Origin: Jimgerdemannia flammicorona
Taxonomy: Eukaryota
Direction: 5' to 3'
DNA length: 40,072 bases
Assembly: GCA_003990765.1 (NCBI GenBank)
Contig: RBNJ01000128.1
Coordinates: 1 to 40,072, forward strand
Under the pieces are notes generated by a model that was given only the letters and a program-made list of their open reading frames with translations, did not search any database and was not told where the DNA came from. Shown piece after piece: positions 11,828 to 33,400 of this stretch (its first letter is position 1; each line of letters opens with the position of its first letter). Both the position numbers and the translations under genes were made by a program.

Positions 11828-12373
11828 GTCAGAACTAAGCTCAAGAATCTCTGATTTTATAATGATAGAAAAGAAGACTTAGAAGTATTTGCAACAAGAT
11901 TAGAAACTCTTCTGAATACTATAGGAGTAGAATATAGCTGATGAGAACAAACAGTAAATGGAACCAGAGTAGCATACTTCTTTAATACTATCTCTGGATG
12001 GTTTAAAAAAGATCTGAGAGCAAGGATAATTCTATAATTATCTATAAACAATAGTGCTTAGGATAAGCCATTACTAGAGTATATACTATCTTAGGCTCAA
12101 TTACTAAGAGATAATAGAATAACAATAATGGAGACAAGAAATATTAATTTAAAAAGAAATTCAAACCTCAGTATGACTCTTCAAAATCACAAAGAGAATT
12201 CAAGAAATTGTCTGATAAGGAAATGAAGGAACTTATAAAGAAAGGAGCATATTTTTACTACAAAAAGAGAGGATATATATCTCACAAATACTCTGACAAG
12301 AAGTCCAATATAAACAAAGAACCATCCTCCTCACATACTATTACTATAATAAGAGATAACTCTAAAGAAATCT

Positions 12374-12777
12374 AAGGTTAAGAGATTCTACATTATAATA
12401 AAAATTTCAAATAAAGTATATAAATCTGATACTGATTATGATCTCTACTCAAGTATAGAAATAACCATTAAATCAGGCAAGCAAGCAATTATTAGTATAG
12501 GTATTAGCATAGAAGTTTCCAAAGGAATCTATATTTATCTTGCAAAAAAAAGTAGTCTGACTAAGAAAGAAAGACTCTATATAACTAGAGGAGTTATAGA
12601 CTAAGGATTTATAAGTAAAATCAAGGTCCTACTATACAATACTGGACAGAAGACTATCAAAATTATATATAGAAACTAAATCATCCAAATCATTATTAAG
12701 AGAATATATAATAACTTTGAAGTCAAAGATAAACTATCACTCTCAGATAGAGGAAAAAAGCTTTTGGATCAACAGAG
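12374..12777 (+). pseudogene. dut: Decayed trimeric dUTPase domain of element A (upstream of protease)
   Basis: KVKRF...KSDTDYDLYSS (motif I), AKKSSLTKK (II), RGVID*GFISKIKVLLYN (III), IQIII (IV) and SDRGKKAFGST (V). Confidence 0.8.
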
Positions 12778-13110
12778 AAGTACTCTAATAAGGCCAAGAA
12801 GAAGATCAAGATACAGAAGATTATTTACATTGAAGAATCTTAAGACTAAGACCAGAAATAATACCAGTATATTGCTAATGAATATATCTCAGCAGGATGA
12901 TATTCTTATAGAATCAAGATATACTATTTGGAATATATATATAGGAGAATATATTATATATATCCTTGAATTCAAGAAGAATAAGCCAACTATTTCAGAA
13001 TAATAAGATGAAGAAACCAAGAATATCAATGATGAAGATAGAGATACATAAGATTGGAAAGAAGAAGTCTCTCTAGAAATAATTGCTATCTAATAAGAAA
13101 GTAATCCCAA

Positions 13111-16100
13111 TACCTTTCTCCAGTATAATTCAGATTATACAAAACTTCTGACAATAATTTCAACATTGTTTTTGAAGAAAAGATAATAGTAACATAGTAA
13201 CTGATAGATAATCTGAGGAGCATATAGAGCAGGGCAGCCTCAGTATATTTGACTGGTAGTATGTAGGAGGAGGTATGGCTTGGGGCTTATTGGGCTCTCT
13301 CACAGATAGGAGAGGGAGTGGAAGAGGCAGAGCTGATAGATAGAAGACTGAGAGAGTGAGCTTTGCAGACAAGGTCAAGGCAGAGTATCTATTAATAGGA
13401 TTGAAGAGATAGCTACAAGAAGGCAAGAAGAAGGAGGAAGCAGCTGGGTCTGGTAGAGTGGCTCAAGGTAGTAAGAGTAGTAGGGCTGGAGGAGTAGAGA
13501 CTAAGGAGAGTGGGACTGTTAATAGAGGGGAGACTACTAATCTGAAAAAAATCTAGATATGATAGCTGATAGTAGATCTGAGCAGGGGGGGGTACAAGGT
13601 CTGGAGACTTGGCTAATAGTATAATGAGTCTAGTGACAGCACTCTTACTTAAGAAATTAGTATTCAAATTCACTATCACATTGTGTTTTCAGAACTTAGC
13701 AGTTATAGCAAAAATGATTTTGGAGCTTCTAGCTCAAGAGGTGAAGAGAGCAGCCTTAGTGAAGTTCTTAAAGAGATTGGAAGGAGTAGAGGTGGGCTTT
13801 AAGGAGAAGAATTTGATACTGAGAGCATTGGGGAAAAGAGTAGTAATGGAGGGGTGGCAATCTCTATAGCTTGGTACTTATGATGAGACCTCTGGGTGAT
13901 TTAGTTAGTAGTGGAAATTGTACTTATAGTGAAGAAGGAGGTGACCAGGAGGCTGATTATTAATGCCATCATATAGAGATATTATAGATGTTGGATTCAG
14001 AGTCTAAGAGAGTATAGAGTTTAGAACAGAGGATATAGATATCAGAGAAAGGCTGGCAGGTAAGGAGAATACTGAAAAAGAAAGAGATTGGTCAGCAGCA
14101 CTTAAGTAGAGTCCAGTAGAGTGCAAGGTCTTAAGGGTGAAGAGGATGCTAGAGGAGAAGGAGGACCTGTTAAAGATATTAGAGGATCTGATTAGTATTG
14201 TTGAAAGGAGAAGATTGGCCTAGAAGAAGTTGAGACTAAGATAGTAGTAGAGATTATAAATGGCAAGAGAGTACAACTGGAGCAGAAAGTCTAGAAGAGG
14301 GCTCAAGGGAGGCAGTGATAGAAAGATTTGTTGGTGAATTTGAAAGAGAGGGCTGAGAGAGAGAAGATCACTGAAGAAGCTGGATCAAGAGTGAGTACCT
14401 GGACAGGTGAGGATAGAGCAGCTTTAGAGATAATCCTGGTAAAGAGTAGGGATCCAGAGTGGAGTATGATGGCAAAAGATGAGGTGATGGAAGAGGGGAG
14501 AGGGGACTCAAGTACAGTATAGGATATCTACAGAGAGAGGAGAAACTGATAAGCTATAAGATATACTAGAGGAGGATTAGGATGAGTCAGTGAGGACAAA
14601 TACTAATGGCAGTCAGAGAGTTGAGAGACTGGAGGTGGTCCTGGAAGTGGATAAGGCTGTGGGAGATAAGAGATAGTTATGGAAAACTCTGACAAATATT
14701 GTGGCTGAGAAGTTAGGTGAGGTGGATTTTTATATTATTAGTGAGAGATAGTGGAGCAATATCTTACAAAGAGAAGAGATGGTGCAAAAGCTCCAGAATG
14801 AGTTAATGGCAGTCCTGCTAGAGGCTGAAGAGTATGAAGTAGATAATGGCAGAGAGGCAGCTCTCCTAGTAATTATAAATAAATGTACATCCTATCTATA
14901 GGGTCTCAGAAAGAGATTGGCAAAGTGGCAGGTAGTGTACAAGAAGTACAGGTCTTCTATGGAAGCAAGGATGGTGAGGATTGTCAGGAGATTCTGAAGA
15001 CACTGGATGCTTAGTAGGAGGAGGCAGATGAGATTGAGGCAGAGAGGAACCTAGATGTGGTGGGTGATATAGTGAGTATAGAATTGTAGAGTGAGAGATC
15101 AAGCTTCAAACATTATTCAATATAAACAGTACAATTAGAATCTTCTCTTTAAATGTCAATAGATAGAGAGATATATGTAGTGAGATATCAGAATATTTTT
15201 TACTGACTGAAGGGACTGGATACTGATCTGATCTTACTGTAGGATATAAGATCCAATAAGGACTTGAATATGCAAGATTAGATGAAGAAATGGGGGGGAG
15301 TGGCTGTGTGGAGAGATAGAGTAGGTATTCTAGTTTGAAAGGACAAGGGGGACATTGGGGACATTGGACACTGGAGAGGTAGAGTGGTGTGGAGAGTATG
15401 AAGGAGACCAGGCTGGAGTCCTTTGACTGTTGGATCATATTACTGCCCAGCAAAGAGGGGGATACACTTGAAGTAGATAAGAGAATTACAAGATGCAGAG
15501 GTAATGATAGAGGTAGAGATAGACTATTTGGGTGGAGACTTTAACATACATAGTTTGTAATGGATAGTTGGACAGGATAGATGAGAGGAGGGAGAAGGCT
15601 GACAGGAGTGAGAGAATGGAAGATTGGGAGGAGATTGAAAGGCTGAGCTCTCTGGTGGATGCAGGGTAACTTGGGTGAAGAGATCATAGGGTCTACACTT
15701 ACTGAGTAACTGGGCTGAGCTCAAGGATTGACTGGATCTTAACTGCTGAGTGCTGGGGAAGAGATGTCTGGGAATCTTTGCAGATAGTTTGGTGTCTGTG
15801 ATCAGATTACTGGAGACTTCTAGAGTATGGAAGGTTTGAGGGAAGTGGGGAGGGGCCTGGACATTGGTGTCTAAATGTATCCTTACTGGGAGAGTCCTCC
15901 TTGTAGGATGTATAAGTAGAGAACATTAGTATCTATATCCTTAATTAGAGGGAGAAAGGGCTGGAGATAGGAAATTACTGGTGGCAGTTGAAATTGGAGG
16001 CTCAATAGTTCTGGAGAGAGAAAGGGAGAATGAGGAGTACTCAAAGGAGGAGTCAGATATGGTGGGTCTCCTAAAGGTTGAAGTTGTTGGTGATATAGGC

Positions 16101-18851
16101 TGAACTGCTGAAGGATAGAGAGAGAGGATATTGGAGAGTTCAGTGAGTCCAGCTTGAGATGGAGAAACTGAAGAAGCTACTGAGACAGAAAGAGAACTTA
16201 CAGGTTAAGGGTATGGTAGCTCAGTTGCAGTGGTAGGGCTTGGAAGAAGGGGAGAGGCCTATGAAGTTTCTGTTGAGGATTCTTTAGGTAAGAAGAGTGA
16301 GACAGCAGTGGAAAGGAGTATTGAATGAGACAGGAGAGATAGTGGTGGGGACTCAGGAGACCTTGGATCAGTTGAGTACTTAGTGGAGACAATTATAGAG
16401 TGAGGAGAAGAGTGGAGAGGATGCACTGGACATTAAATGTCATTTGGAAGACTGGCACCCAGATCTAGCAGAGGGCTTGTGGAAACTCAGAGTATTAGTC
16501 AAAGGAGAGGAGATCTGTCAGGTGTTAGTAATGATAAGTCTTGGGACAGCTCCTGGAAGGACAGATTACTCTGGGATTTCTAGATGAGAATGGCAGACAT
16601 TGAGTTAGTCTTGGAGGAGATAATGTAGATATATTATAAAGTTATTAGCTTAGGGACTTGAATTGAGAAAGCACTTAGGCCTTGTAGCTCTATTGTATAA
16701 GAATAAAGGAAGAAGGGAGAAGTAAAAGAACTAGAGGCCAATTATGCTTCTGGACATAGATTGTAAGTTAGTCATAAAGATATTGATAGCTTAACTATAG
16801 AGAGTAGCTCAGCAGGTGCTGGGGGAGGAGTAGCAGGACTTTGTCAGTAGCTATCTAATAAGGAATGAGATAGTATAGATATATAGTATCATTGAGGGAG
16901 TAAGGGCTATAGGGGTAGATAATTATCTGGTATTTCTGGACTAGGAGAAAGCCTATGACAGAGTCCAGTGAGTATGGCTAGAGAGGGTACTAAAGTACAT
17001 TAGAGTTCTCCCAGAAGTTTGGTGATCTTTGGTCAGTCTGTTAGAGGAGAGTCAGATAGCTATCCTGATGAATGGCCACAGAGAGATTTTGTTCCCCCTG
17101 GGCAGAGGAGTGCTACAGAGGGACTTGCTATTACTGATCCTTTATGCCCTCTACTTGGAGCCTCTATTAGACAGAATTCAGTATAAGATAGAAAAGTTGA
17201 ACATTCTTGGGGTGAATTGAAAGATGGGGGCCTTTGCTAATGATATGGTGGTTGGACCTATAAAGGATGTGGCAGTATTGAAGAGAGCTGTGGAATAGTA
17301 TGAGGAGTACTCTAGAGCTAAGCCTAACTGGCACAAGTGTGAGACAATGATGTTTAGTAGAGGGATAGTAGGTGGGGACATGATTGAAACAGTTGTTCCA
17401 GCAGAGGAGATGGTGTGATATTTAGAGATATACTTCTCAGTATATAGTTCCCTATTATCTAAGGAATGGTGGGGGTAGTAGTTAGTGGAGTGGAGGAATA
17501 TGCTTCTGGGGTAGAGAGGACAGTATATCTCTCTAGCTAGAATAGTAATAGTGTTGAACATATACTGGCTGCTAAAGTTGTAGTATCTAGGATATCACTT
17601 GGACTTTCTGAAGTAAGTAGTCAGGAGGCTGTTGAAGATGGTCAGGACCTAGACATGGGCTGGATAGAGGAGTCAGATTGGATGGGAGGTTTTGATATTA
17701 CTAGTAGACTAGGGGGGACTGGGTCTAGTAGACTTTACCAAGTATTTACACTGTTTGTAGGCATAGTAGCTGAGATGATCTAGTAAGCTGTGGGGTTGAG
17801 AGTGGGTGCCCCTAATGTAGAGAGTATGAGAGGTGCAGTTCTCTCTCCATGACATATCTGGTAACTTACTTTCTCTGGTGATATTGAAGGAGAGCTAGAA
17901 GATGTACTTTATGAGATTCTAGTAGAGAGTGGTTGATAGAGTATATCATATTGGTCTCTACTGGTAGAGTGATGAGAGGGAGATAGACTGGGGACCTCAG
18001 ATGTAAAGGTGGGACTGTCTTTTGCTGGGAGGTATGCAGGTGATTGACTTCTGTTTAGAGGATAGTATAGAGTGCTTGTAAGAGCATGGAAGAGATTTAT
18101 GGTCAGAGGCTTGACAGGGGGTAGAGATTGGTGAAGAGTGGAACTGAGATAGTATTTGGTTATAGAGTAAGCTGGTGGTATAGTTAATTTCTCCCAAGTT
18201 TTGGATAGCTTGATGGAGGCTTCTGCAGTATAATGTGATGTTGAATTTTCAGTCAGAACATCTGATGAAAGGAGGTACCTTGGAGTGTGAAGAGTGCTTG
18301 AATATTGAGTAAAATAGGAAAGTGATACAGACCTCTGAGCATTGGCTGGGGGAGTGTGAAGTGATGGGGGACTTTTAGAGGACAATTGAGAGTCAGATAG
18401 GAGTATACTCTCCTGGGCTAGTGGTGGAGGAGAGGTGGGGGGATCTCCAGAGGAGATTGGTGAGTAGAGTTGATAATGAGTAAGTAACTGTTGAGTATTC
18501 TAGCTATTTTGATTGAGCTTATCAGATATTAGCTGTATGTGATTGAGAATGGTCAGCAGTTGGTGCTTGGGATACAGGTTATGAGGTAGGAATGGCTGAT
18601 ACTAGAGCTTTTGAATAGTTAGTAGCAGGGTGGAGATCTGGAGAGAGGCTCTAATAATAGTTTATAGAGAAGATTTGTAGGCAGAGTGGAGAGAGGATTG
18701 AAGTAGTGGGGGAATAGTGATATTCCAGAGAGATGGAGAGAGAGAGAGAGCTCCTTATAAGATTGAGTGAGGGGTTTGTTCATCTGTATTAGTATAAGTA
18801 TGACATAGACTAGATGATAATAAAGTGGAATAATAATAATAATAATAATAA
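13111..18851 (+). mobile_element. Full-length decayed L1-like LINE, copy 1 (ORF1 + APE-RT-ZnF ORF2), (AAT)n tail
   Basis: ORF2 from ~15122: IFSLNVN, GGDFN and RIDWIL (APE); FLD*EKAYDRV, GRGVLQRDLL, AFANDMV and YLEIYF (RT); CEEC...EHWLGEC zinc finger near 18290-18360. The (AAT)n tail runs 18829-18855. TSD taatcccaa lies at 13102-13110 and 18852-18860. Confidence 0.9.
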
Positions 18852-19290: not shown

Positions 19291-21750
19291 TATCAAGAAA
19301 GTCTAAATTTATTTCTATCTTCAGATTCTTCTACTTCTTTTGTAATAGATTTCTTACTACTGATATACTCTTCCTGGATAGTGACCTTCTTCTTTCTTTT
19401 TGACTGCTTATAGCTGGTTACCTTGATTCTATACTTCTTTCTCCTATAGTTGAATTTGAGCATCTTTTGGCCAATTTCAATGACTGTATGCATTTATTTC
19501 ATCTAGTTGATATCAGAATCATATCATAAGTGACAGCTTTAGTAACAACAGCTTTTAGAATAGAAAACTGGATGTGTCTCAGAAAGATAGTAATGTTTTG
19601 TACTTCTCTAAGAAGTTGAGTTTGGGCTTCATCTACTACTATGATACTGAGATTAGATAGTCTATCAATGGGCCACTGAAAGGTATCTAGGAATTATTTG
19701 ATAATAATACAGATAGCTGCTCCTATATCAATGAGGATTTTCACCTTTTGTCCTCTAATATCTCTATATAGATATGTGCTGATATATCTTTCTATAGCCT
19801 GAATAGTGGTTGGGCTAGTTCTTATTGAGAGATTAGAACTTGGCCAGTACTATACCTTATAGTTCTTAATAGTTTGTTTTAAACTCCAGCAGGTATTAGT
19901 TGCAAGAACTGCAAGAGAGAGACTTCTATCTTGACTTCTTGGATCTTTTATTAGGTTTTATTGTAGATATCTCTGGGCATAGTCTTTGAGATATACTTCT
20001 TTTTAGATTTCAGAACAATAGGCTCTCATTCTTCTTGCTCTATTTCTTTATTCTTTAATAGTAGTTTATTTATTTTAGAAATAAAAGGTAAGAGAGATTG
20101 TGGAGGTATTTCAATCTGCTCTTTTTTATATTTTTCATCCTCTTTCTGAATAATTCTTCTGTTGGTATTTCTGGATGATCTTTCTATAGGTCTCTTTATT
20201 TTCTCTACCAGATAAACTATCTTTCTAGTAATAACCTTGACTGGGTATAGGTCTAGGTCACTATAATGTTGCTTTCCTTTTCAAAGTCCTCAACAGAGTG
20301 AGCTTTGGTCTTCTTTTACTAGATTTCATTCTTTTGATTTGATAGTTCTAAGTCTCTTTAATCACTTCTTCTATTGTTATATTCTGTAACACAGTATCCA
20401 AACTGTCCATAGTAGAAGTATTGGACTTGAGCTCTATCCCAGACAGAGTACCTTCTTTCTTCTTATAGCTGGTAACTCCTATTATCTCTGAGTAGGTAGT
20501 TTTGGGTTTTTGTAATATATACTCTCTGTTGTCCTATAAGTAGCTCTGATTTTCATATGTAGTAAGTTTTTCAATCTGTCCAACCAATCAGTCTAACTTA
20601 GAGTTGAGGTCTTAGATTTTTTTTTTTTCTTTCTTCTATTTTTTGACTGACTTTTCTTCTTCAGATCTTTCTTGTCCTTGGAGAAGTCCTTGTAGAATCT
20701 TAACTAAAAGGACTTTCTTGTTATCCTTTTTGTTATAATCACTTCAGATGGTTCCTTATTTGATATTGAAAAATTCTTGGGCTGTATCTACTTGTTCTTT
20801 AGGTCTTCTGATATCTAGGGTGTAGCAATGTTTAGGAAAATCTCATTTATAAAGATCATTGGGTCTATAATATCTTTATTGATAGCATTGAAATCTGGCT
20901 GCATGCATTCTCTTTTGAATTCTCATGAAGAATACTCTAGGTGATTCTTTGAGATTCATCTTTATCTCTATAATAGATTCTTAGACCTTATAGTGAATTT
21001 TATTTTCTACATATTTCTCTATAAGTTAATAGATCATAGTCTCATATTCTGCTTCTCAGATTGCTGCTATATAGATGGCTAATCTAAAGTCTGAATGTAC
21101 ATTACTTACTATCTGATTAAAAATTCCCTTGGCTAGTTCTCTGAGTTGAGTCTTATAGCTGACAATTTTTCTCTTAGCAGAAAGGTTCTTCAAAGCTGTA
21201 ATTTCTTCAATTCTATCAAGAAATTTCCTTGAGTCTTCTTTTGAGTATTCAGCAAAAGTTGGAATTAATATGGCTATTTTATTATTACTATCTTCTGGTT
21301 CCAATTCTGATTCTAATTTTGGTTTTGATTTACTTTCTGAATTATTGCTAAAACTGAAAATACTTGAGTATTCTGAAAATAGTATTGCTGATATCAGATA
21401 AAGTTCAGTGGGTCTGGGTAACCTTGAAGAGTCTATTCTTAGTCCTTCTGGTTCTGTGATTACTGGTTCTGATAATGGTTCAATGGGGGAGACTGATGAG
21501 ACTTCTGAGGAAAACTGAGCCCATACAATGAGATCTTTGAGTTCTTGTGCAAGCTCATTGAAGTTTCTAACAGAGCTCTGTATTGTTCAGTTGATCTGGT
21601 TGATTTGGTTGATCTGAGGATAAGTTGGTTGATACTGGTTGAGGATTCTATACTTTACTGACTTCTGGTTAAGATTCTTCTAATATTGGATAATGAGTAT
21701 ATCTTGAGATAATTACTTCTCTTTCTGTCCAAAAACTGATAATGATTTGT
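19290..21750 (-). mobile_element. Decayed Ty3/gypsy fragment C (gag + protease)
   Basis: Gag-like IPTFAEYSKEDSRKFLDRIEEITALKNLS (ORF 21056-21304). Protease IRGQKVKILIDIGAAICII lies at ~19700-19760. Boundaries are approximate. Confidence 0.7.
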
Positions 21751-21763
21751 TCCCCTATATTAG

Positions 21764-22142
21764 TAGTATTCTCAACAAATTAAATCAAATCAAATTTGAC
21801 TCAAATTTAATTCAATTTGATTAAATCAAAGGTCTAATTCAATTTAATTTAAATTAAATCAAAGGTTCAATTCAATTCAAGATTCAATTTGAACTCTTTT
21901 TTTGAAATGTAATAACTCAATAAAAATATGTCTAAATTAACAAGTTAAAGATTGTTAAATTTGGATGTCTTTTCATTAAGTTATTATATTTTTAAAAATA
22001 GGGTTTGAATTGGACTCTCAATTTGATTCAAATTTAATTTGATTCAAACTTAATTCAAATTGAAAAATCCCCAATTTGATTCAATTTGAATGACTCTCAA
22101 TTTGATTCTATTCAAATTGATTCAATTTATTTAGGAGTACTA
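21764..22142. mobile_element. Foldback MITE copy 2, inverted relative to copy 1
   Basis: TIRs tagtattctcaacaaat / atttatttaggagtacta, with flanks tatattag / aagattag. The internal aaaaatccccaatttgattcaatttgaatgactctcaatttgatt is the reverse complement of copy 1 sequence near 11520-11567. Confidence 0.75.
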
Positions 22143-23249: not shown

Positions 23250-23327
23250 ATTTTTGATATACTTTGAGAATATAAGCTCTCAGAAAAAAGAAAGAAGTAC
23301 TACTTCTTTAAGAAGAAAATTAAATAT
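23250..23327 (+). mobile_element. Old Ty3/gypsy RT fragment, left of element B insertion
   Basis: KLSEKRKKYYFFKKKIKY joins in frame to LGYIVS after 30032. Confidence 0.7.
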
Positions 23328-23783
23328 TGTAATGTAGCGGACGCTTACTCTTGAAAGTATGTCAGATTTCTGTATCTTGAAAACTTGACTGTTCTGACTC
23401 TTGCAGAGTCTCTTGAAGTTGCAGGGGAGAGTGGGTGAGTTCAAAGTGTATCTGCCCGCAGGCTTACTAGTTCCTTTGCTATCTCTTTGCTTTGAACTAT
23501 TTCGATCTGAGGTTTATTCACTTGAAGATACTGGGTTATTTATACAAGTTTGCTAGCTATGAGATGGTTACTGGGTTACATAGCTAAGTTATGAGTCATT
23601 TAACACTTTGCAAAGTATTTTGCCAGTTGCAAAATGCTATACTATATCAAGAAGCTCGATCTTGCACTTTGTGAAATATTTAGCAAATGGCGGAATCAAG
23701 GACTGCTAACTATGTGGCTATACTACTTTGGGACTAGTGTCTGTTCCCTATTTCCTTCTTCTGAATCTGGCTATACCATCATA
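23328..23783 (-). repeat. 3' LTR of element B (456 bp)
   Basis: Direct repeat of 29562-30028. The differences are mostly CpG transitions plus one 11-bp indel. Confidence 0.95.
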
Positions 23784-23793
23784 ACTTTCTCCT
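23784..23793 (-). promoter_or_regulatory. Polypurine tract of element B
   Basis: Minus strand aggagaaagt abuts the 3' LTR. Confidence 0.7.
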
Positions 23794-23874
23794 GAATAGA
23801 TGATCTCATCCTTAAAGCATCTATTCAAACTCCCAGGCTTCAACGGTCTGTATGGTCTTGTATTGCATGATTTG

Positions 23875-24282
23875 TTACATTACTGTTTCCCAATGGTATC
23901 GCCTGACTTGGTTGAAGTCTGAGGGAGTCACTCCTCGCAGGTGGGCTAGTGCTGATTCATCCTCTTGGAATAGCTTGTAGATTCTCTTAGCAATGGTGAT
24001 CTGGAAATAGGAGAGCTGGCATTCTGTGACCCAATTTTCTTTGGTCATTTCTGGGTCTTGGTTGAGTACTTGGCCAAGTTTGAAGTACTCTTGGAATTCA
24101 TTTCGATGCTGATAGACTTTGAAGTGTGAGATCTGAGAGAGACGAGTCTGCACGATGCTTTGGATACTATCATAAGACTCCTCTATAGTTAGAGGCTCAG
24201 TGGTGCACCATTGTCTCTCGATGGCTCTTTGGGCAGCACTAGTGATCTTGAGTGCCATCACAGTACTTTTGTTACTAGCCAT
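23875..24282 (-). CDS. Accessory ORF3 of element B, unknown function (135 aa as it stands; may originally have run on towards the PPT)
   Basis: ATG-initiated and open for 135 codons despite hypermutation. The ATG overlaps the last pol codons. No hydrophobic TM segment. A homolog lies at 38350-38857. Confidence 0.75.
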   Translation of the reverse strand: MASNKSTVMALKITSAAQRAIERQWCTTEPLTIEESYDSIQSIVQTRLSQISHFKVYQHRNEFQEYFKLGQVLNQDPEMTKENWVTECQLSYFQITIAKRIYKLFQEDESALAHLRGVTPSDFNQVRRYHWETVM

Positions 24283-27200
24283 GATATTTCTTGAGTCAGT
24301 TTTGGTGAATGGTAGTGGGGATTATTATGCCTGAGGGTTTTCATAGCCAAAAGGTGGTCCCTTTTATATCTTGCACAAGGTAAGGTCCTTCCCACTTGGG
24401 CTCCAGTTTTTGTGACCATGAAGCTTCTACCATATTCTGATACACTAGGACTTTGTCTCCTATCTTAATAATCTCCAAGGGTTTGTGGGTCTTTTCCACA
24501 TTCCTCCATTATAGTGTCTGCGCCTTGGTTATGTAATCCTCAGCCTTCTTCCTGATTTGGTGTAGTCTCTGTATTTCTATGTCCACATGTTTCCATACAG
24601 CATCTCCATTGGATGATAGGGTTTCCTGAGAACAGTCTTCTCTGAATAGCATTTCTCAAGGGGTAAAGTGGGTACTTTGTGATTGGATATCCCAGAGAGC
24701 AGATAATGCTATTGGCAGATAGTGATCCCAGTTCTCATAGTTATCGCAGATCTTGGCAATAATGTTCTTGAGAGTTTTGTTGGTCCTTTCTACTTGTCCG
24801 TTTCCTTGAGGGTGATATGCTGTGGTCTGAATATACTAGATCTTATACTTCTTATAGAGAACTTCGAAGAACTGGTTCACAAATTCTGTTCCTCTATCTG
24901 TAGTTACTTGTGTTGGAGTCTTGAACTGGCAGATGATTTCTTTGTGGAAGAAATTGGCGATTGACTGTGCATTGGCTTCCATAAGGGGTCCTGCTTCTAT
25001 CTATTTTGTAAAAAGGTCTATGATGATAATGATGTATCGGTTGCCAGTCAAAGTCAAGGGTAGAGGGCCGATTATGTACATCCATTGCAATGTGAGCGAA
25101 TGGTACTGGTTCTATGTGTGCTGATCCTGGGGCTTGATTGCATTGGTCTTGTTTCTGTTTCTGGCATTTGTCACAGGTCTTGATGAATTGTCTGATATCT
25201 TCCTCCATTCCTGGCCACTATATTGTTCTTCTTGCCTTGTCATATGTATTCGTTCCTCCTAGATGGCCAAGTTCGTGTACTGATTTCATTGTTTGCTCCT
25301 TCTTGTGTTCTGGTATGACTAGTAGTTTTTCTTTCTTCAGTGTTTCTCCATCAGTTTCAAATTGTTTCTATGTTCTGTTGATAATCATTTGTATCCATTC
25401 TTCCAGATATTGGGGCATCTTTCGCTGTCCCAGGTATGTGATAATTCCATAGTAGAGCTTCTTATTCATGATTGATTTGTTGGTTGGAGGTAGTTCGGGG
25501 TGTCCATGAGAGGGCATCTGCATTGGCATTGGTTCTTCCAGAGTAGTGTATGATAGTTACATCATAAGCTTGCAACTTCATTATCCATCTGGCATAGATT
25601 CCTTTGGGTTGTCCAGTTGTCAGTAGCCAGGTGAGAGCTGAGTAGTCCATTTGGATGGTGAAGTATCTTCCAGCCAAGTAGTAGTGGAACTTTTCTACAG
25701 CCCAGATGACTGCGAGGTATTCCAACTTGTAGGATTCATATTCTTTTTCAGCTCCTCGGGTTCCGTGACTGAGGTATGCAATGACATACTCTACCTTATC
25801 TTTCTTTTGAGCCAGGACTGCTCCTAGTCTTTGTACACTTGTATCAGTCTGTAGGATGAATTCTTGAGTCCAGTCAGGTCTTCTGAGGATGGGTGCTTGG
25901 GTCAGTCTGACCTTGAGTTCATCAAATGCTTTTTGTTGTCTACCAGTCCACTGGAACTTGGTATCCTTCTTGTTAAGTTTGTAGATTGGTCTTGCAATAT
26001 TAGAGAATCCTCTAATAAATCTGTGATAGTAGGAGGCAAGTCCCATGAAGGCTTGGGCTTCTGTAACAGTGGTGGGTCTTGGGTATGCTGCCACTGCTTG
26101 TATCTTGAGGGAGTCCATGTGTGTTCTATCTCGGTTGATGATGTGGCTGAGATAGGAGATCTCGATTTCTGTGAATTTGCATTTTTTGGACTTGATATAT
26201 AGGCCATGCTTTCTCAGTCTTTCCATTATCTACCAGATGTGCTGCAGGTGTTCTTCTGGTGTCTGGCTGTAGATTATTACATCATCAACATAGACCATCA
26301 TCCATCTTTCCATGTCATAGCAGAAGATCTTGTTCATCATTCGCTGGAAACTTGCTGGTGCATTGCACATTCCAAATGGTATACATAGATAGACATAGGT
26401 TTCATCTGGGGTGATGAAAGCTGACTTTTCACTTACCATGTCTGTGAGTCCAATTTGGTAGAATCCCGTATATAAGTCCAAAGTGCTATAGTACTGTGCT
26501 TCATCTCCCAGTATTATGAGGATGTCATTGATGAGGGGCAGTGGTTGGCGATCCTTCTTGGTAACCATGTTGAGCTTTCTGTAGTCAACACAGAGTCTTG
26601 GGGTGAATTCTCCAGGCTTGCTGCCCTTTTTCAGGGCTAGTACAACAGGTGAGGACCAGGGGCTGCTGGCTTCTTTAATGATGCCGGCTTCTTCCATCTG
26701 CTTGATTTCTTCTCTGAGCCATTCTTGGTAGGCTGGTGGGACAGGTCTTGCCTTTTGATAAATTGGTTCAGTATTTCCAGTATCTACTTCATGATAACAG
26801 TGTGGGGTCTTTTCTTTGATATCCTTGAAATCTGTGGCAAGAATATCTTCGAATTCATGGAGTATTTTCTTGAGTTCTTTCTTGAGTGGAAATTTATTTC
26901 CGATAGTGTAGCTGTGCTTGCTTGTGTTTTCCTCCTTCTTATGCTCGAGTTTGGTGATCTTGGTGCTGGCAAATACTCCTCTTTCTATAGATCCAAATCC
27001 TTTCTTTCTTCTTTTCGTTTCTTCCAGCTTCTTAACTTCTATGATCTTTGGTTGTAGGATTGGAAAGATCAACATTTGTGCCAATCGGTCCTTCTTCTTG
27101 ACTGGAAATGGAATTGTAGGATTGTGATTCCTAGCAATAAGTAGAATTTCTCCAGTATAGTCTGAATCGATGACTCCTCCTTCAATTGTGATTTTGCTTC

Positions 27201-28100
27201 TGGCCAGACTGCTTCTTGTCTTGAGAATCCCGACATGATCCTTTGGGATAGTCATCTCCATTCCAGTTGCAAGTAGGGTGGTTGTCTGGGGTTCCAGTAT
27301 AGTCTCTTCTACTGTAGTGATGTCAATTCTGGCTGTGTTTTCTGACTTATATTCTGGCAAGACTGCATCAGGGTGGATCTTTCGAATCTTGACCTTGATT
27401 TCTTCTTCATCATCACTGTCCTTCAGGAGGGCTGGTGGTTCATCATCTTCCTCCTTCTCTTCTTCTCTGATCTGTTTTTTGAGAGCTTTCTGCCTTCTTT
27501 CCTAGTGGATCTTCTTGGTTCTGATGGTGCATTGGTAGCAATCATTGACATGCTCCATACATTACATCTTGATCCCATGAGGACAGACTCCTTGTGGGGC
27601 ATAATCTTCTGCGATCTTCTTGCACCATTCTTCTTTACTTATCTATCCAATTTTCTTCTTCTTTGGAGTAGTCACCATATAAGCTTCCTCTTGCTCTCTC
27701 TCTTCTTCCTCCATATTGGACAGGACTCCTTTGTTGACATTGATGAGAATCTGTATCTTCTGTCCCCAGTAGGTGATCTGTATCTTCTGGGTATTGAGAT
27801 CGATTACTGCTTTGGCTTTGTGAAGCCATTGATTGCTGATGAGGATATCATAGTTGGTGGCATTGGTTACAATTACACTGGGATGGTTGCTCCTCCAATC
27901 TTGATGGGAACATCTTGGATCTTTCCCAGAGATGTGGCTCTTGTGCCATTGGCTGTAACGAACACCAGCTTAGTTGCATCTTCCACATCCCAACCTAGGC
28001 AGTCTGCTGCCTTCTTGCTGAGGAGACATCCTCCTGCTCCCGTATCAATGATGGCTTCAAAGACTCTATCTTCAATTTGGTATGTTGCATAAGCAGAGGT
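24275..28100 (-). pseudogene. pol: pol of element B (PR, dUTPase, RT, RNase H, integrase), with premature stops and frameshifts
   Basis: PR AIIDTGAG (~28040). RT LCVDYRKLN, LDLYTGFYQI, PFGMCNAPASFQ and YVDDV. RNase H LQTDTS, LEYLAVIWAVEKF and NANADALS. IN HELGHLG..CDKCQ, IAMDV, GQVERTNKTLK and GPY motif KWEGPYL. In-frame stops at 26227-26229 and 25462-25464 look like CAG/CAA>TAG/TAA. Confidence 0.92.
26984..27399 (-). CDS. dut: dUTPase domain in element B between PR and RT
   Basis: KVKIRKIHPDAVLPEYKSENTARIDI, KTRSSLA, GGVIDSDYTGEI, DRLAQML and RRKKGFGS correspond to dUTPase motifs I-V, in frame with RT. Confidence 0.93.
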
Positions 28101-29446
28101 TTTGCGATTGTCCTTGCTTTCTTCTCCTGAGTCCTCTTGAACATTATTGGCCTCAGTTATCTTCCATCCTTGTTCCTTAGTTGTTTCAGCAAGTCCAAAC
28201 CTCATTTGCTGTCTGAATGTTGGGATTTCTGTGAGCTGACCAAAGGTTGCATTGACCTTTTATTGACTGAGGTCAAGATATCATACTTGAAGGTCTTGGT
28301 CTTGCAAAGCTTCTTTTCTTTTTCTCCTTCACTGGCTGGAGTGGTTCCTCAGATAATATCTTAAACTGCTTGCTCCAGCTCCATATCTTGGTCCATCTCT
28401 TCAGCTTGGCTTTTGGTGGCCGTTTCCATCTGCTTTTCCACTGGGTTCTTCTTGGGTCTTCCTGGCGGTCTCTTGTAGGGTTCTTTGCGAACATCCTTCT
28501 TAGTGGTCTGAGCAGGATAGACCTCCCATTCCTCTTCATCAGATTCTCCAATTTCTTCAAAGGTGATTATATTGGCCTGCTCCTTGTTTCATGTAGTATT
28601 GCTTGGTTGAGCCTTGCGCTTGGTTTCACTCATGTATTCATAGGAGTAGTGGCCTTCTTCTCCACAGCTGTAGCAGGTATCTTTCTTCTTGTCTGAGGTG
28701 GTGGCAAACTTCTGAACAGGGCAGCAGTCTCTTCCTCAAATTTCCTTTACCACATCTCCCAGGTGGGCTGTCATTTTGGCAAACCTTTTGGTAAGTTCCT
28801 CCATAGGGTCACTGTTCTTTTGCTGCTCTGTAACTTTTGGCTGAGGTGTGTTTCGATTGATCATTGTGGTAGGGATCATACTAGTTGCCTTGGGTGCTTC
28901 GATTCTAACTCCTGTAACTCTCTCTATTATATGGTCTTGTGGGTGTCTGGCTATTCAGTATTGCTGAGCATAGGTGACCTTCTGTGGCAGATCCAGAATC
29001 ACTGATGATGAGCAGATGGCCATGGCTATTTCTGGATGGACTCCTTTCATGAAGATTGCTTCAGCTACTTGATCTCAAATGGCAGCAGCATAATCTGCAA
29101 GGATTATCTGATATCGAATTCTGGTATAGAATGTGTTTGGATCCTCACTCATTCCTTGGCATGTTGTATTGAGCTGATCCTTCAGGGCTTGCTTGATCTC
29201 ATCTATATAATATGTATTTCAGAGCCAGGTCTTCTGTGCTGTCAGTATAGCATTGGTATCATTTCCTGCATGGGTTGTGGATGTGAATACTGCTCTGGCA
29301 GGACCTCGTAGGCTGAAGGGCATGAGGGCTACTTGCTGTGCTGCTGTCAGGATCCTTACAGCAGCATATTGCTTGAAATCATCAATGAAGGTGATGATTG
29401 ATTCATCTGAGGTATATCCATGGAATACTGGTGGTCTCATATCCAT
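28100..29446 (-). pseudogene. gag: gag of element B
   Basis: MDMRPPVFHGYTSDESIITFIDDFKQYAAVR...SLRGPARAVF at the N-terminus. The CCHC knuckle TCYSCGEEGHYSYEY lies at ~28630-28680. Confidence 0.85.
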
Positions 29447-29544
29447 CTTGTTCTTGGTATTGTAGTTTGGTTTGTATGGTTGTTTGGGTAGTGGTGGTTG
29501 TTCGTTGTTCAGCTTGAAAGTGAGGGATTCATCTTGAATCATCA

Positions 29545-29559
29545 GCCAATGGGCACCAA
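29545..29559 (-). promoter_or_regulatory. Putative tRNA primer binding site of element B
   Basis: ttggtgcccattggc starts 2 nt after the 5' LTR. Its TGG could pair with a tRNA CCA end; the tRNA identity was not determined. Confidence 0.55.
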
Positions 29560-29561
29560 GT

Positions 29562-30028
29562 TGTAACATAGCAGATGTTTACTCTTGAAAGTATGTCAGA
29601 TTTCTGTATCTTGAATACTTGACTGTTCTGACTCTTGCAGAGTCTCTTGAAGTTGCAGGGGAGAGTGGGTGAGTTTGAAGTGTATCTGCCCACAGGCTTA
29701 CTAGTTCCTTTGTTATCTCTTTGCTTTGAACTATTTCGATCTGAGGTTTATTCACTCGAAGATGCTGGGTTATTTATACAAGTTTACTAGCTATGAGATG
29801 GTTACTGGGTTATATGGCTAAGTTATGAGTCATTTAACACTTTGCGAAGTATTTCGCCAGTTGCGAAATGCTATACTATATCGAGAAGCTCGATCTCACA
29901 CTTTGCAAAATATTTAGCAAATGGCGGAATCGAGGACTGCTAACTATGTGGCTATACCACTTTGGGACTAGGTGCGATCAAGTGTCTGTTCCCTATTTCC
30001 TTCTTCCGAATCTGGCTATACCATCACA
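29562..30028 (-). repeat. 5' LTR of element B (467 bp)
   Basis: TGT...ACA on the + strand; direct repeat of 23328-23783. Confidence 0.95.
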
Positions 30029-30437
30029 ATATCTAGGATACATTGTCTCAGCAAATAGTATTACTATTTACTCTAAAAATATTGAAGCAATCTATAACTG
30101 ACCTATTCTAAAAACTCTCAAGTTTCTATGAAAATTTAATAGATTAGCTAGATACTATTAAGATTTATTCAAAGATATTTAATCTTTTATAAGCCTTTGT
30201 AAGAAGGGAATAAATATCAAAAAAGAATAAACAGAAGAATGCATTATAGCAATAAATATCCTCAAGAGAATGCTAACTGATATACTAATCCTGATTAGCC
30301 CAGACTCTACAGAACTTTTCACAGTTACTATAGATATCTTAAATATTATTATTAGAGCTATATTGACTCAGTATAAATACCTAGTTGCATATCTATCTCA
30401 GAAACTAAATAAGTATAAAAAGAACTATACAATATAG
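30029..30437 (+). mobile_element. Old Ty3/gypsy RT thumb / RNase H fragment, right of element B
   Basis: LGYIVSANSITIYSKNIEAIYN*PILKT...RLARYY*RFIQ...FTVTIDI...AILTQYKYLVAYLSQKLNKYKKNYTI. Confidence 0.8.
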
Positions 30438-33400
30438 ACCTTTCTCAGCTATTGCTTAGATTATATAAAGAAATATACTAAGATCATATTATTGATTTGA
30501 AGTTCTGAGAAGTATGCTGGACAGAGTAACTCTAGTATATTCAACTAGCAGCATGTAGAGAGGAGTCATAGCTTGAGTGTGGGCCTCTTGGACTCTTGTT
30601 CAGATGGATGTAGGGGTGGCAGAAGTGGGAGGCTGGGTACTGGTAATCCTAGGGCTGAGAGAATGAGCTTTATAAATAAGATCAAAGCTGGGGATCAGTT
30701 GGTAGGATTGGATGGATGGCTGAGAAGAGAGAAGAGAAAGACACCAGGTAAAGGGTCTGGAGGAGCTGTGCTGAGGGACCATGAGGGCAGGGCTAGAGGA
30801 ATAGCAGTGGGCAAAGAGAGAGAGACTACTGATGGAAGAGTAACTATTAATCTGAAAAAAAAAATCCAGATATGATGGCTGATAAAAGAGCAGAACAAGG
30901 GAGTGATATAAGGTCTGAGGATTTAGCTGATAGTGTAACAGGCTTGATGGCAGCACTATTACTCAAGAAATCAATATCTCTGAATTTGCTATTATACTGT
31001 ATTTCTGAAGCTTAATAGTTATAGCAAAACTGGTTCTGAGATTGCTGGCTCAGGAGATTAAAGAGGCAGTCTTAGTGAAGTTTCTGAAGAGGCTCAAGAG
31101 GGTTGAGATAGGCTTTGAGGAGAAGGATTTGATGCTGAAGATACTGGAAAAGAAGAGAGTGATCAGTGGAGTAACAGTCTTTATAATAAGGTATCTGCAG
31201 TAGGACCCTTGAGTGGTTTAGCTAGTGGTGGTGAATATTCCTACAGTAAGGAAGAAAGAGACAAGAAAGCTGATTGTTGATGCTGTGAAGCAGTATGAGA
31301 ATATTGTAGATATCAGCTTCTGAGTTTGGGAGAGAACTGAGTTCCAAATAGGTAATATAGACATCTGGATAAGATTGGCAGGAAAGGAGATCATGAAAAA
31401 AGTTAGGGACTGACCAATAGCACTAAAGTGGAGCCCTATTGAGTATAAGATATCAAGAGTGAAGGGGATGCTAGAGAAGGAGGAGAATTTACTAAAGATT
31501 TTAGAGGATCTAGCTAAGGTGGTAGAGAAGAGACAGATGGCATAGAAGAAGTTTGAGACTAGAACAGTGATAGAGATTATAAATGGCAAGAGGGTACATC
31601 TGAACCAAGCTGTATTAGAGAAGAATAAGAGTAGACAGCAGCAGAAGGATCTGTTGGTAAATTTGAAAAGAGAACTGAAGATAGTAGTAAATATAGCAGT
31701 AATTGGTTTAAGGACCAGTATCTGGGCTAGAGAATCAGAGGGGCTATAGAGAGAGAGTTCAGTAGAGGGAGAGATATAAGAGGAGAGTTCTATGGTCAAA
31801 GATGAGGTGATGGCAGATGAGGCTCTGATACAGTATGGAGTTCTGTCTGTAGAGAGAGAGGATGAGCTGTAGGATATACTTGAGGAGGACTGAGATGAGT
31901 TAGTGAGGATAAGTACAGAGAGAAGACAAGAGATGGAAAAGCCAGGGCTGGTCCCAGGAGAGGAGAAGGAGATTAGAGGTGAGCACTAGCTCTGAAAGGT
32001 ACTGATAAATATTACTACTGATGAGTTAGAGAGAGTGGACTTCTAGATGATCAGTAAGATATACTGGAGAAATGTTTTGAGAAAAGAAGAGATAGTATAC
32101 AAGTTGTAGGATGAGTTGATGGTAGCTTTACTGGAGGCAGAGAAGTATGAAGTAGATGAGAATAGAGCGGCTATACTGTTGGATATTATAAATAGACATA
32201 TAACTTATCTGTGAGGACTAGGGAAGAGGCTGGCAAAATGGCAGGTGATATATAATAAGTATCAGTCAGCCATAGAGGTGCAGAATGGGGAAGACTATTT
32301 AGAAGTATTAGTAGCTCTGGATGCCTAGCAGAAAGTAGAAGTTGATATCAAGACTGAGAGAAATCTGAATTTAACTATTGATATAGTGAGTATGAAATTA
32401 TAGAATAGGAAGAACTTTATAAATATTATTCAACATGAATATGTGGCAGTGTAGTAGGGCAGAGTAGATATCCTAGTTTATAAAGGAAAGAGGGACATTG
32501 TGAACATTGGACACTAAGGAGAGAGGATAGTATGAGAAACTTAAAGGAGATAGAGTTGAGACTCAGTTGTAGTTGGGTCTTGTTACTACTTAGCTGAAAG
32601 AAGGGTCTGAGTAGAGTGGATAAGTAGACTAAAGGACTCAGGCATACTGGTGGAGACTGGGGTAGACTGTCTAGGTGAGGACTTCAATATGGTACATAAT
32701 AGCAGAGTAGATAGTTAGGAGAGAGCTGTCAGAAAGAGTGAAGGACTGGATTGCTGAGAGGAGATTGAGAGACTTAGCTCTTTGATAGATGCTGACAGAC
32801 AGAAGTGAGATGATTTCAGAGTATACACATATTGGATAGATGGGCTTGACTTGAGGATTAACTGGATCCTAATAGCTGAGTGTTGGGGAGATAATATCTG
32901 AGAGTTATTGGAGACTAAATGATACCTATAGTCAGATCATTGAGGTCTCCTGAGAAGTGGAAGTTTGGAGGGTATGTAGAGAGATCTGAACATTAGTACT
33001 TAAACTCATCTTTGTTAAATAAGCCCTTATTGTAAGCCTCCTGGATTGTAGATATTGAGTCTAGGATTCTTGTCTAGAGGGAGAGTGGTCTGATAATTGA
33101 AGATCAGTAGAGAAGGCTGAAGTCTAATGCTCAGCAGTTCTAGAGAGAGGCCAGGAGACTCCAGAGTACTCAGAGGAAAGGACATATGTAGTGGGCCTCA
33201 TGTCAGCTAGAAAGACTTCTGAGTCTACTGGAGGATGTGAAGGTGGAAGATTAGAGGATTCAGTATATCCAGCTGGAAGTGATAGAACTACAGAGTCTAC
33301 TGAGAAGAGAGGCAGATATATAGGTACAGAGTATAGTGGCCAGGCTGAGGTGGTAAGATCTGGAGAAAGAGAAATAGCTAACTAAGTTTCTATCAAGACT

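Follow-up and report, generated by a model that had tools for sequence, protein, structure and literature searches.

The window analysed here, a stretch of 40,072 nucleotides from Jimgerdemannia flammicorona (contig RBNJ01000128.1), contains on its minus strand a 6.7-kb LTR element of the Ty3/gypsy type with gag, protease (PR), dUTPase, RT, RNase H (RH), and integrase (IN). The two LTRs of this element are 92% identical, and a 4-bp ATAT duplication was read from the sequence at the element. In the "env position," after IN and before the 3' LTR, lies a further open reading frame of the sense strand, referred to below as ORF3. The features under discussion are the following:

about 29561-30029, minus strand: 5' LTR (TG...CA), from LTR comparison
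starting at 29558, minus strand: putative PBS-like TGGTGCCCATTGG after the 5' LTR, as read from the sequence only
25462-29569, minus strand: coding region for gag (CCHC knuckle), protease, dUTPase, RT, and RNase H, from Pfam and ORF reading
26989-27363, minus strand: dUTPase
25462-25469, minus strand: overlap of the RT-RH stop and the IN start (cATGaaTAA), of the same geometry as the IN/ORF3 border
24275-25469, minus strand: integrase ORF (zinc-binding domain, core, SH3-like end ...HQN*LKKYHG)
24272-24282, minus strand: IN/ORF3 overlap, cATGgcTAGTAA (cATGgcTAG)
23875-24282, minus strand: ORF3 from ATG to stop, 135 codons plus TAA, from ORF reading
23821-23874, minus strand: continuation of ORF3 in the same frame past the premature TAA, 17 codons (QIMQYKTIQTVEAWEFE) plus TAG (23823-23821)
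23785-23793, minus strand: polypurine tract AGGAGAAAG, immediately before the 3' LTR, found by reading
about 23327-23784, minus strand: 3' LTR, from LTR comparison
38645-38854, plus strand: 70-codon open stretch, the "second related ORF" of the initial annotation

The copy of the element in the window is dead; its pol carries many stops and its ORF3 is cut at codon 136. The gag-to-RNase H region, in which gag starts at 29569 or 29446, is interrupted by stops and two internal frame changes, and the integrase ORF is disrupted by one frame change and many stops (7 in the 289 codons of the IN core frame, 24278-25144). Integrase is encoded as an ORF of its own, distinct from the RT-RH ORF and joined to it by an ATGnnTAR overlap as at the border between IN and ORF3. 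The coordinates first assigned to ORF3 were borne out, including the position of its ATG (24282-24280) in overlap with the integrase end ...LKKYHG. The 17 codons beyond its premature TAA match the C-terminus of the full-length relatives P0001 and P0008 (153 aa) and, by sequence comparison, the window ORF3 is a truncated copy of a 153-aa family. At family length ORF3 ends 36 nt before the 3' LTR, and an intact ORF3 would occupy the whole interval from the end of IN to the polypurine tract. ATG-initiated ORFs of at least 135 aa arose at a rate of 0.06 per dinucleotide-shuffled window (200 shuffles, 6% of which had one); the length of ORF3 exceeds this chance expectation.

Homologues of ORF3 were found as 10 protein clusters (P0001-P0010, with 20 member sequences) that are 66-79% identical and share its frame and start, 10 of 11 candidate proteins having scored at E ≤ 0.01. 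All seven homologues that cover the N-terminus begin MA[NT][NQ], and the ten form two to three subgroups that are 64-75% alike; the C-terminus of the family is reached by only two of them. These homologues are ORFs retained by gene callers and are known here as protein sequences alone, and their openness is a biased observation because it was the gene callers that kept them. A word-indexed search returned 10 matches, none of which is named beyond "hypothetical protein," and a profile of the 11 sequences searched against 1,835,955,588 representatives returned three matches at E ≤ 0.001, all belonging to the ORF3 family. The initial annotation had likened ORF3 to a large, uncharacterised family of helical proteins in the Glomeromycotina. 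No such family was found and, since the profile search returned the ORF3 family only, its existence is unsupported. That these 1.84 billion representatives hold no ORF3 relative from outside the family speaks against a genuine gene, whose long-term conservation would be conjectural. The proposal that the elements carry a real protein family thus stands with respect to the 10 related clusters of like start and frame, which are also the homologues in other copies whose lack had been named as grounds for doubt; it does not stand with respect to the wider family, nor to the second ORF in the window.

This second ORF, situated 14 kb away, had been described as clearly related to ORF3. The similarity extends over 34 residues with 32% identity. 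Searches confined to the window scored it at E = 0.03 with tblastn and E = 0.14 with the family profile, and hhalign assigned a probability of 43% (P = 2.5e-4 for a single comparison, the segment having been preselected as the best of 1695). No retroelement Pfam domain was detected in the 89 short open stretches of 13000-18000 and 35000-39500, the DNA of the second ORF lies outside the nearby repeats, and a profile of six INs matched 24344-25556 only, with no integrase remnant near the second ORF. The relationship is not established.

The ORF3 protein is near neutral (pI 6.4-6.8; K+R 15-18 vs. D+E 16-19), and the GRAVY value of the window copy is -0.56. It has no hydrophobic stretch, the highest 19-aa Kyte-Doolittle mean of full-length P0001 being 0.19, and the earlier statement that it has neither signal peptide nor transmembrane helix agrees with this value. 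Pfam recognized no family, chromodomain included, in 23751-24464, whichever of the three sense frames was read. Both AlphaFold2 models of ORF3 are composed of helices only and are poor (mean pLDDT 53 and 55, from alignments of 11 and 12 sequences). Foldseek searches of these low-confidence models against the PDB and BFVD gave 0 matches at E ≤ 0.001, a comparison of folds that is weak because of the low confidence of the models (pLDDT 53-55), and a profile search of PDB sequences gave a single match at E = 0.37. The structure prediction and Foldseek check that had been proposed thus yielded no match to a known Env or IN extension. The initial annotation had also held that ORF3 is neither Env nor a chromodomain, and both statements agree with the results: there is no hydrophobic segment and no Pfam or fold match to support the former, and no Pfam match in three sense frames, together with helix-only models, to support the latter. 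As a separate candidate, a duplicate of gag was rejected on finding no similarity to the element's own gag. The ESM Atlas returned vague look-alikes, namely small helical phage and HTH-like clusters with scores of 0.92-0.95, that share 145-165 features, fewer than the 170 usual for true family members, and no inference was drawn from them.

When ORF3 was modelled as a dimer, a score of 0.46 was obtained, and the best of three controls scored 0.00. The mark applied to such models was reached by 21 of 30 solved same-chain pairs and 0 of 23 solved single chains in its calibration; with eukaryotes, the values were 17 of 29 and 0 of 30 single chains, and 1 of 7 for those without an older solved relative. 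The dimer runs agree in at least 81% of contacts with a partner pLDDT of at least 64, and the modelled interface takes in residues 40-94 and with them the block in which the invariant columns fall. The model supports binding of ORF3 to itself, and the protein would probably pair symmetrically, with its most conserved block (roughly residues 40-94) as the contact surface.

The amino-acid differences within the family fit constraint at the protein level. The 86 distinct one-nucleotide differences have a mean BLOSUM62 score of +0.395, compared to -0.16 to -0.33 for random mutation (sd 0.17, P ≤ 0.0004). In each of 10 pairwise comparisons the mean was positive (+0.05 to +0.88), compared to -0.28 to -0.40 under simulated neutral drift. 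Finally, the score is higher for differences shared by at least two copies (+0.33, n = 48) than for singletons (-0.13, n = 85; one-sided P = 0.033), the shared ones being the more conservative. On three separate counts, replacements were thus more conservative than neutral. Codon usage likewise fits a translated frame: measured as log-odds against the RT/RH usage of the element, the ORF3 frame scores +0.155 per codon and the other two frames -0.32 and -0.46, the former exceeding 0.072, the 95th percentile for 500 random pieces taken as best-of-three. Had the family drifted neutrally to 70-78% amino-acid identity, 2.0-2.75 stops would have been added for each 135 codons, with a probability of 0.05-0.14 that no stop is acquired. 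By codon position, the one-nucleotide differences are distributed 35:38:11, which is the neutral expectation; the second-position deficit seen in closely related IN cores (21:8 and 28:11) is absent from ORF3.

The IN frame is closed by two successive stops, TAG (24277-24275) and TAA (24274-24272), and the ATG of ORF3 sits 5 nt upstream of the first of these, in the +1 frame relative to IN and with a favourable context (A at -3, G at +4). The sense strand of the element has only three ATGNNTAR sites, two of which are the RH/IN and IN/ORF3 borders. The overlap in which the initial annotation saw a sign of termination-reinitiation is real, and it is also found at the RH/IN border of the same element, where the six nearest IN proteins all begin at a Met homologous to the Met of the window IN. 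Termination-reinitiation involves a start no more than about 20-30 nt away from the stop of the preceding ORF and, when that ORF is as long as here, normally also requires an RNA element that retains the 40S subunit, a TURBS or a pseudoknot (PMC10275272); the ORF3 start is out of frame and within this distance. No unusual RNA structure was detected up- or downstream of either junction of this decayed copy (folding z -1.35 to +0.80), nor any tethering structure or rRNA-complementary motif common to both, which counts against reinitiation. The sequence TGGGA, which we take to be a TURBS motif, is present about 110 nt upstream of the ORF3 ATG, within KWEGP codons, and there is none at the RH/IN border. 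ORF3 may be translated from the full-length RNA by coupled termination-reinitiation, a route suggested by the place of its AUG, 5 nt ahead of the IN stop, and by the cAUGnnUAR arrangement that this border shares with the one between RT-RH and IN.

In the nearest other elements (P0013-P0018), the interval that corresponds to ORF3 encodes a fast-evolving, basic C-terminal tail of IN. The tails of these six INs extend for 112-157 aa after ...LKLY, and in the window about 155 codons lead from the homologous Tyr to the ORF3 stop of the family. The sister tails are 32-40% identical, compared to 86-89% for the IN core, and their replacements are radical (mean BLOSUM -0.6 to -0.7); it follows that this interval tolerates almost any sequence. 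When the six tails were compared to the window by tblastn, no alignment in the interval had an E value below 2.2. A search by degenerate back-translation for a hidden ORF3-like frame under the six tails, in two frames, gave z ≤ 1.46 at low power (null about 240 vs. positive control 653), and the differences among tails by codon position (29:27 and 41:25) gave no hidden-frame signal, also at low power. No fused IN-ORF3 form scored among 77 candidates of 238-2000 aa; a separate search for IN proteins covered a range into which INs of the same family (expected to be <507 aa) do not fall. ORF3 differs from the C-terminal tails of IN in its +1 frame behind TAG TAA and its lack of similarity to them. 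It is possible that ORF3 acts together with integrase, because the interval of equal length encodes a basic IN tail in the nearest elements; in no frame, however, does ORF3 resemble the sister tails in sequence, which counts against such a link.

ORF3 is probably a genuine, family-restricted additional ORF of the kind carried by LTR retrotransposons. The fuller account, to which we attach slightly better than an even chance, is that it is a genuine gene of a dUTPase-bearing Ty3/gypsy family encoding a 153-aa soluble, all-helical, near-neutral, and probably dimeric protein, which would be produced by reinitiation and would serve as a partner of IN. The roles initially proposed for it, as an anti-silencing factor, a nucleic-acid-binding regulator, or an accessory of the particle, are conjectural. 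A competing view, unlikely but deserving of serious consideration, is that ORF3 is not a functional gene at all but an open frame left by a frame-changed IN tail, open only since the copies are fairly young and similar among them by descent. The almost free evolution of the sister tails in the interval, the lack of ORF3 relatives beyond the family, the neutral-like codon positions of the differences, the poor fold models, and the mostly truncated homologues are each in accord with this view; it has to contend with replacements that are too conservative on three separate counts, pol-like codon usage confined to the ORF3 frame, the 2.0-2.75 stops per 135 codons that drift to 70-78% identity adds, a start Met that has been kept, a dimer model that passes its controls, and an ordered helical composition unlike that of an arbitrary frame of a basic, low-complexity tail. 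ORF3 might otherwise be a C-terminal extension of IN that directs the choice of integration site, as a counterpart of the in-frame tails or chromodomains of other elements; ribosomes would reach it by shifting to the +1 frame at the stop (GGC UAG U). Fungi are known to use such frameshifting at slow or stop codons, with antizyme, Ty1, and Ty3 as examples. ORF3 indeed lies in the +1 frame relative to IN, this frame stays open over the 13 codons that precede its ATG, and sister elements have an in-frame tail of equal length. Nevertheless, a start Met in good context is kept in 7 of 7 covering homologues, the IN frame ends in two successive stops, no fused form was seen among the 77 candidates of 238-2000 aa, and the RH/IN border has a like ATG geometry at which Met starts six independent INs, all of which makes this explanation very improbable.

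It is also conceivable, albeit rather improbable, that ORF3 is real but has a subgenomic RNA of its own, produced by splicing or by an internal start, and that it is a post-transcriptional regulator of the element's RNA, like CERV in Cer1 or Rev in lentiviruses. Splicing is the usual route for sense ORFs downstream of pol, as with env of gypsy and Bagy2 (PMC7264820), and the accessory protein CERV provides a precedent that is lineage-restricted, multimerising, and made from a spliced mRNA (PMC10309623). A branch-point-like CTGAC followed by AG, evident on inspection 8-17 nt upstream of the ORF3 ATG, and the dimer model that passes its controls would also accord with this route. However, the leader has no convincing splice donor, only two weak GT sites that both lie inside the LTR, the protein is non-basic (pI 6.4-6.8), and no nuclear-localisation, arginine-rich, or basic-cluster motif is evident by eye. 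The notion of a degenerate envelope gene, chromodomain, or captured fragment of a host gene is largely refuted and retains only the slightest probability; position downstream of pol speaks for it, and nothing else does, whereas the hydrophobic segment is absent, Pfam is empty in three sense frames, low-confidence models gave 0 PDB or viral fold matches at E ≤ 0.001, the PDB sequence profile gave one match at E = 0.37, and no protein from outside the family was found among 1.84 billion representatives. A bolder extension of the preferred reading, that of a genuine gene, would have a tricistronic clade of fungal Ty3/gypsy elements (gag-PR-dUTPase-RT-RH, then IN, then ORF3) whose two downstream cistrons are expressed by termination-reinitiation coupled at a conserved cAUGnnUAR; in one family of this clade, ORF3 would have arisen de novo from the +1 frame of the freely evolving IN tail and would now be a dimeric partner of IN that replaces this tail. 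We consider it a speculative and fairly improbable scenario; if true, it would represent the birth of a retroelement accessory gene by overprinting, caught near its origin.

Extra genes of this kind are already known from retrotransposons. New here are an IN encoded in a separate ORF with an ATGnnTAR overlap and the presence of an IN tail of sister elements in the interval of ORF3. LTR retrotransposons often carry extra ORFs beyond pol, of which almost none has a known role. Being compact, an orphan, and probably dimeric, with the IN tails of sister elements as a comparison group, ORF3 could therefore be a tractable case. It could address both how retroelements gain accessory genes and whether fungal LTR elements use stop-start coupled translation like several fungal RNA viruses. 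For purposes of annotation, its interval should be masked as transposon-derived rather than listed as a "hypothetical protein" of the host.

Sense additional ORFs in the interval between pol and the 3' LTR of LTR retrotransposons have been termed aORF-3S (Vicient and Casacuberta, 2020, PMC7264820), and fungal examples were presented as "add. ORF" (Novikova et al., 2010, PMC2864245). ORF3, on the sense strand between pol and the 3' LTR, resembles the aORF-3S in place, orientation, occurrence in many copies of a family, lack of similarity to host genes, and lack of an assigned function. It differs from them in that it has no membrane segment and is not env-like, is without a sequence relative, be it a described protein or an undescribed one, starts in overlap with the pol stop, and belongs to an element of a fungus and not of a plant or insect. 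The brtn gene of Botrytis Boty (Zhao et al., 2011, cited in PMC8365987 and PMC7264820) is likewise a small extra ORF of a fungal gypsy element, located between pol and the 3' LTR and, in these citing accounts, without an assigned role. Its orientation is antisense; ORF3, by contrast, runs in the sense direction and overlaps the stop of pol. With the C-terminal extensions of Ty3/gypsy INs, both chromodomains and the tails of P0013-P0018, ORF3 shares the interval of about 155 codons after ...LK.Y; it is distinguished from them by its other frame, its own Met, an ordered helical rather than basic, low-complexity composition, and the lack of a chromo fold or sequence similarity.

Stop-start reinitiation is represented by calicivirus VP2, influenza B BM2, two viruses of fungi, CHV1 (UAAUG) and HvV190S, and SART1, a non-LTR element (PMC10275272; PMC2699510), and no LTR retrotransposon shown to use it was found in the literature searched. 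Like these cistrons, ORF3 has its AUG a few nt from the upstream stop, is out of frame with the ORF before it, and lies towards the RNA's 3' end; unlike them, it presents no tethering structure or rRNA-complementary motif at both junctions, and the upstream ORFs are very long. The one worked non-envelope example of an accessory gene is CERV, which belongs to Cer1, a Ty3/gypsy element of C. elegans (Sun et al., 2023, PMC10309623). CERV is a protein of 517 aa with three domains, compared to the 153 aa of ORF3, and the two share no homology; CERV is encoded by a five-exon spliced mRNA that shares exons with gag, whereas ORF3 lies wholly downstream of IN, and CERV has an NLS, an NES, and Cys-rich motifs, none of which is present in ORF3. 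Nonetheless, each is a lineage-restricted, non-envelope accessory protein of a gypsy-type element for which self-association is predicted, in the case of ORF3 from the dimer model, and CERV demonstrates that an accessory gene of this sort can be essential for its element (PMC10309623).

ORF3, the frame downstream of the integrase (IN), is probably a genuine accessory gene restricted to one family of fungal Ty3/gypsy elements, and is carried here in a dead copy. The reading frame proposed in the initial annotation was confirmed, and the features that frame it are as follows:

23875-24282 (-): ORF3, ATG to TAA, 135 codons, within an LTR retrotransposon
23327-23784 and 29561-30029: LTR pair, direct repeats of 92% identity, with TG...CA ends read from the sequence
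26989-27363 (-): dUTPase domain, Pfam E = 5.7e-25, between protease (PR) and reverse transcriptase (RT)

Also read from the sequence were a 4-bp ATAT duplication on both sides of the element, a primer-binding-site-like TGGTGCCCATTGG after the 5' LTR, and AGGAGAAAG immediately before the 3' LTR. Pfam matches between the LTRs comprised protease, dUTPase, RT, two RNase H (RH) models and the integrase zinc-binding domain. Three-frame translation further revealed the CCHC knuckle of gag as well as the integrase core, which a profile built from six related integrases confirmed. The element is of the Ty3/gypsy type with dUTPase placed between PR and RT, an arrangement known in some fungal gypsy elements (PMC2864245). 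A 180-aa ORF without a Pfam match lies antisense to its gag/protease region at 27550-28092 (+).

This copy is dead, since stops or frame changes are present in each of gag, PR and IN in three-frame translation and ORF3 itself is shortened. The IN core frame (24278-25144, -) holds seven stops in 289 codons (TAG x3, TGA x3, TAA x1), unlike dUTPase-RT and RNase H, which are open over 423 and 255 codons, respectively. ORF3 ends prematurely with a TAA at codon 136, compared with 153 residues in its full-length homologues P0001 and P0008; beyond it, 17 further codons match the C-terminus of these proteins before a TAG at 23823-23821. Because the frame continues to this TAG, 36 nt from the LTR, an intact ORF3 would span the entire interval between IN and the polypurine tract.

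RT and RH of the same element supplied the reference codon usage for an assessment of coding potential. ORF3 scored +0.155 log2 units per codon in its frame, and the remaining two frames -0.32 and -0.46; gag, PR and IN, each read in its proper frame, scored +0.02 to +0.35, the LTR was negative in all three, and the 95th percentile of 500 pieces drawn at random from other parts of the window (best of three frames) was 0.072. ATG-initiated ORFs of at least 135 aa occurred 0.06 times per dinucleotide-shuffled window.

A word-indexed search recovered 10 protein clusters (20 member sequences) related to ORF3 at 66-79% identity, all located on jgi or ena contigs 0.5-3 kb long and annotated at most as 'hypothetical protein'. 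They split into two or three subgroups, 64-75% alike; the seven covering the N-terminus all start MA[NT][NQ], and three others begin at Met33. No fused form of ORF3 was found among longer proteins (none of 77 candidates scored). A family profile was run through 1.84 billion representatives and returned three proteins, each from the ORF3 family, and not the large Glomeromycotina family suggested in the initial annotation. ORF3 had no Pfam match, a profile search of PDB sequences gave a single match (E = 0.37), and look-alikes in the ESM Atlas were non-specific. Two AlphaFold2 models contained helices only and were of poor quality (pLDDT 53 and 55), and Foldseek found no match for them in PDB or BFVD at E <= 0.001. 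By these searches, the protein is an orphan confined to its element family.

Constraint on ORF3 was evaluated from homologue proteins and the window codons in place of nucleotide copies. Of 128 distinct differences between homologues and window, 86 are explicable by one nucleotide change and have a mean BLOSUM62 of +0.395, compared with -0.16 to -0.33 when those codons are mutated at random (transition bias 1-8; sd 0.17; P <= 0.0004). Pairwise means were +0.05 to +0.88 in all 10 homologues, and neutral drift simulated to equal identity gave -0.28 to -0.40 (sd 0.25-0.31). Such drift also introduced 2.0-2.75 extra stops per 135 codons. Singletons were less conservative (-0.13, n = 85) than differences common to at least two copies (+0.33, n = 48; one-sided P = 0.033), which originated in propagating lineages. 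On the other side, the one-nucleotide differences are spread over the three codon positions (35:38:11) as expected under neutrality; closely related integrase cores display a marked second-position deficit (21:8 and 28:11). The homologues are also ORFs retained by gene callers and hence biased towards openness. Together these comparisons provide moderate evidence for purifying selection on ORF3 in active lineages, with the signal weakened by post-insertion decay.

As the initial annotation noted, ORF3 overlaps the end of pol: its ATG (A at -3, G at +4) precedes the IN stop by 5 nt within cATGgcTAGtaa, and the IN frame is closed by two stops. The same geometry recurs where RT-RH ends and IN begins, at cATGaaTAA (25469-25462, -; ATG 25469-25467, TAA 25464-25462), and two of the three ATGNNTAR sites on the element's sense strand are the RH/IN and IN/ORF3 borders. 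The six nearest integrases, P0013-P0018 from sister elements (45-49% identical, 530-571 aa), contain IN domains only; as all six start at the Met homologous to that of the window IN, the latter appears to be a genuine start. From the shared geometry and homologous Met, IN in this clade seems to be a separate, overlapping ORF to which ORF3 is joined in like manner. ORF3 (and IN) would be translated by termination-reinitiation at these overlapping stop-start borders. After a long ORF, that process is described as using an out-of-frame start ~20-30 nt from the stop at most (PMC10275272), and the geometry of these borders fits it. We infer rather than demonstrate this route, because RNA structure at both junctions was ordinary (z from -1.35 to +0.80) in what is a decayed copy. 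A limited literature search found nothing specific on LTR elements using termination-reinitiation or on fungal Ty3 elements whose integrase has an ORF to itself.

Downstream of ...HRNRLKLYH, each sister integrase runs on in frame into a basic tail of 112-157 residues with a high content of R, P, S and Q, in which Pfam detected no domain. The tail is held open yet barely constrained in sequence, since close sister pairs with 86-89% identity and conservative changes in the IN core (+0.66 and +0.81) retain 32-40% in the tail, with radical changes (-0.6 to -0.7). In the window, about 155 codons separate the equivalent Tyr from the family ORF3 stop (23821-24287, -), which is the length of a sister tail; ORF3 resembled the tails of P0013-P0018 in no frame. 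The simplest reading is that ORF3 sits in the slot of the integrase tail but is read in a different frame, from a start codon of its own. A de novo origin at this site is possible and would agree with the protein being an orphan; a joint action with integrase is conjecture, drawn from its position.

Two copies of P0001 folded together gave a dimer score of 0.46, with 0.00 for the best of three controls, contact agreement of at least 81% between runs and partner pLDDT of at least 64. The mark applied to this score was met by 21 of 30 proteins solved as one-chain pairs and 0 of 23 solved as single chains; for eukaryotes the counts were 17 of 29, 1 of 7 lacking an older solved relative, and 0 of 30 single chains. 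The model supports, but does not show, self-binding. Its predicted symmetric interface (residues 40-94) is the block containing the invariant columns, 12 of 23 of which lie at the interface versus about 11 expected, so that there is no special enrichment within the block.

A second related ORF had been claimed at 38645-38854 (+), which aligns with ORF3 residues 93-126 at 32% identity. The tblastn match had E = 0.03 in a search of the window alone, and the family profile did more poorly (E = 0.14); conserved D108, E109, L112 and A113 are unmatched. Its hhalign probability was 43% (P = 2.5e-4 per one comparison, for a segment preselected as the best of 1695). The DNA is unique in the window beyond 37866, and no retroelement domain or integrase remnant was found upstream. 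This stretch cannot serve as evidence for an ORF3 family spread over different elements, and the wider claims of the initial annotation, a second relative and a large family, do not hold.

Elsewhere in the window, two features are probably remnants of other retroelements: a second dUTPase fragment (12353-12601, +; Pfam E = 1.6e-8) and a weak tblastn match resembling protease (19586-19789, -; E = 1.7e-4). Three copies of a ~4.6-kb repeat (13242-17849, 30534-34962 and about 35553-37866, +; 65-68% identity) yielded no Pfam domain when their open stretches of at least 35 aa were scanned. An ORF at 3529-3894 (-) contains a Zn(2)-Cys(6) binuclear cluster domain of the fungal type (Pfam E = 1.4e-6); as the sole pointer to the kingdom of the host, it suggests a fungus. 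Also present are a 205-nt inverted repeat (11485-11689 / 21938-22142; 80% complementary, arms 10.2 kb apart), a near-palindrome at 11617-11786 and, at the window end, three tandem units of ~215 nt each, 84-93% alike (39441-40072).

Among the extra ORFs of LTR retrotransposons, those in sense orientation located between pol and the 3' LTR are reported as the most frequent class, and in that account mostly have no role assigned (PMC7264820). Varied ORF3s are described in bdelloid rotifer elements (PMC5408684), an 'add. ORF' appears in the Figure 3 legend of a fungal survey (PMC2864245), and Boty of Botrytis carries an extra ORF in antisense orientation (PMC8365987). CERV of Cer1 shows that an accessory protein need not be an envelope to be essential (PMC10309623). 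By sequence, ORF3 belongs to none of the described families; in position, it is one of the sense additional ORFs of LTR retrotransposons.
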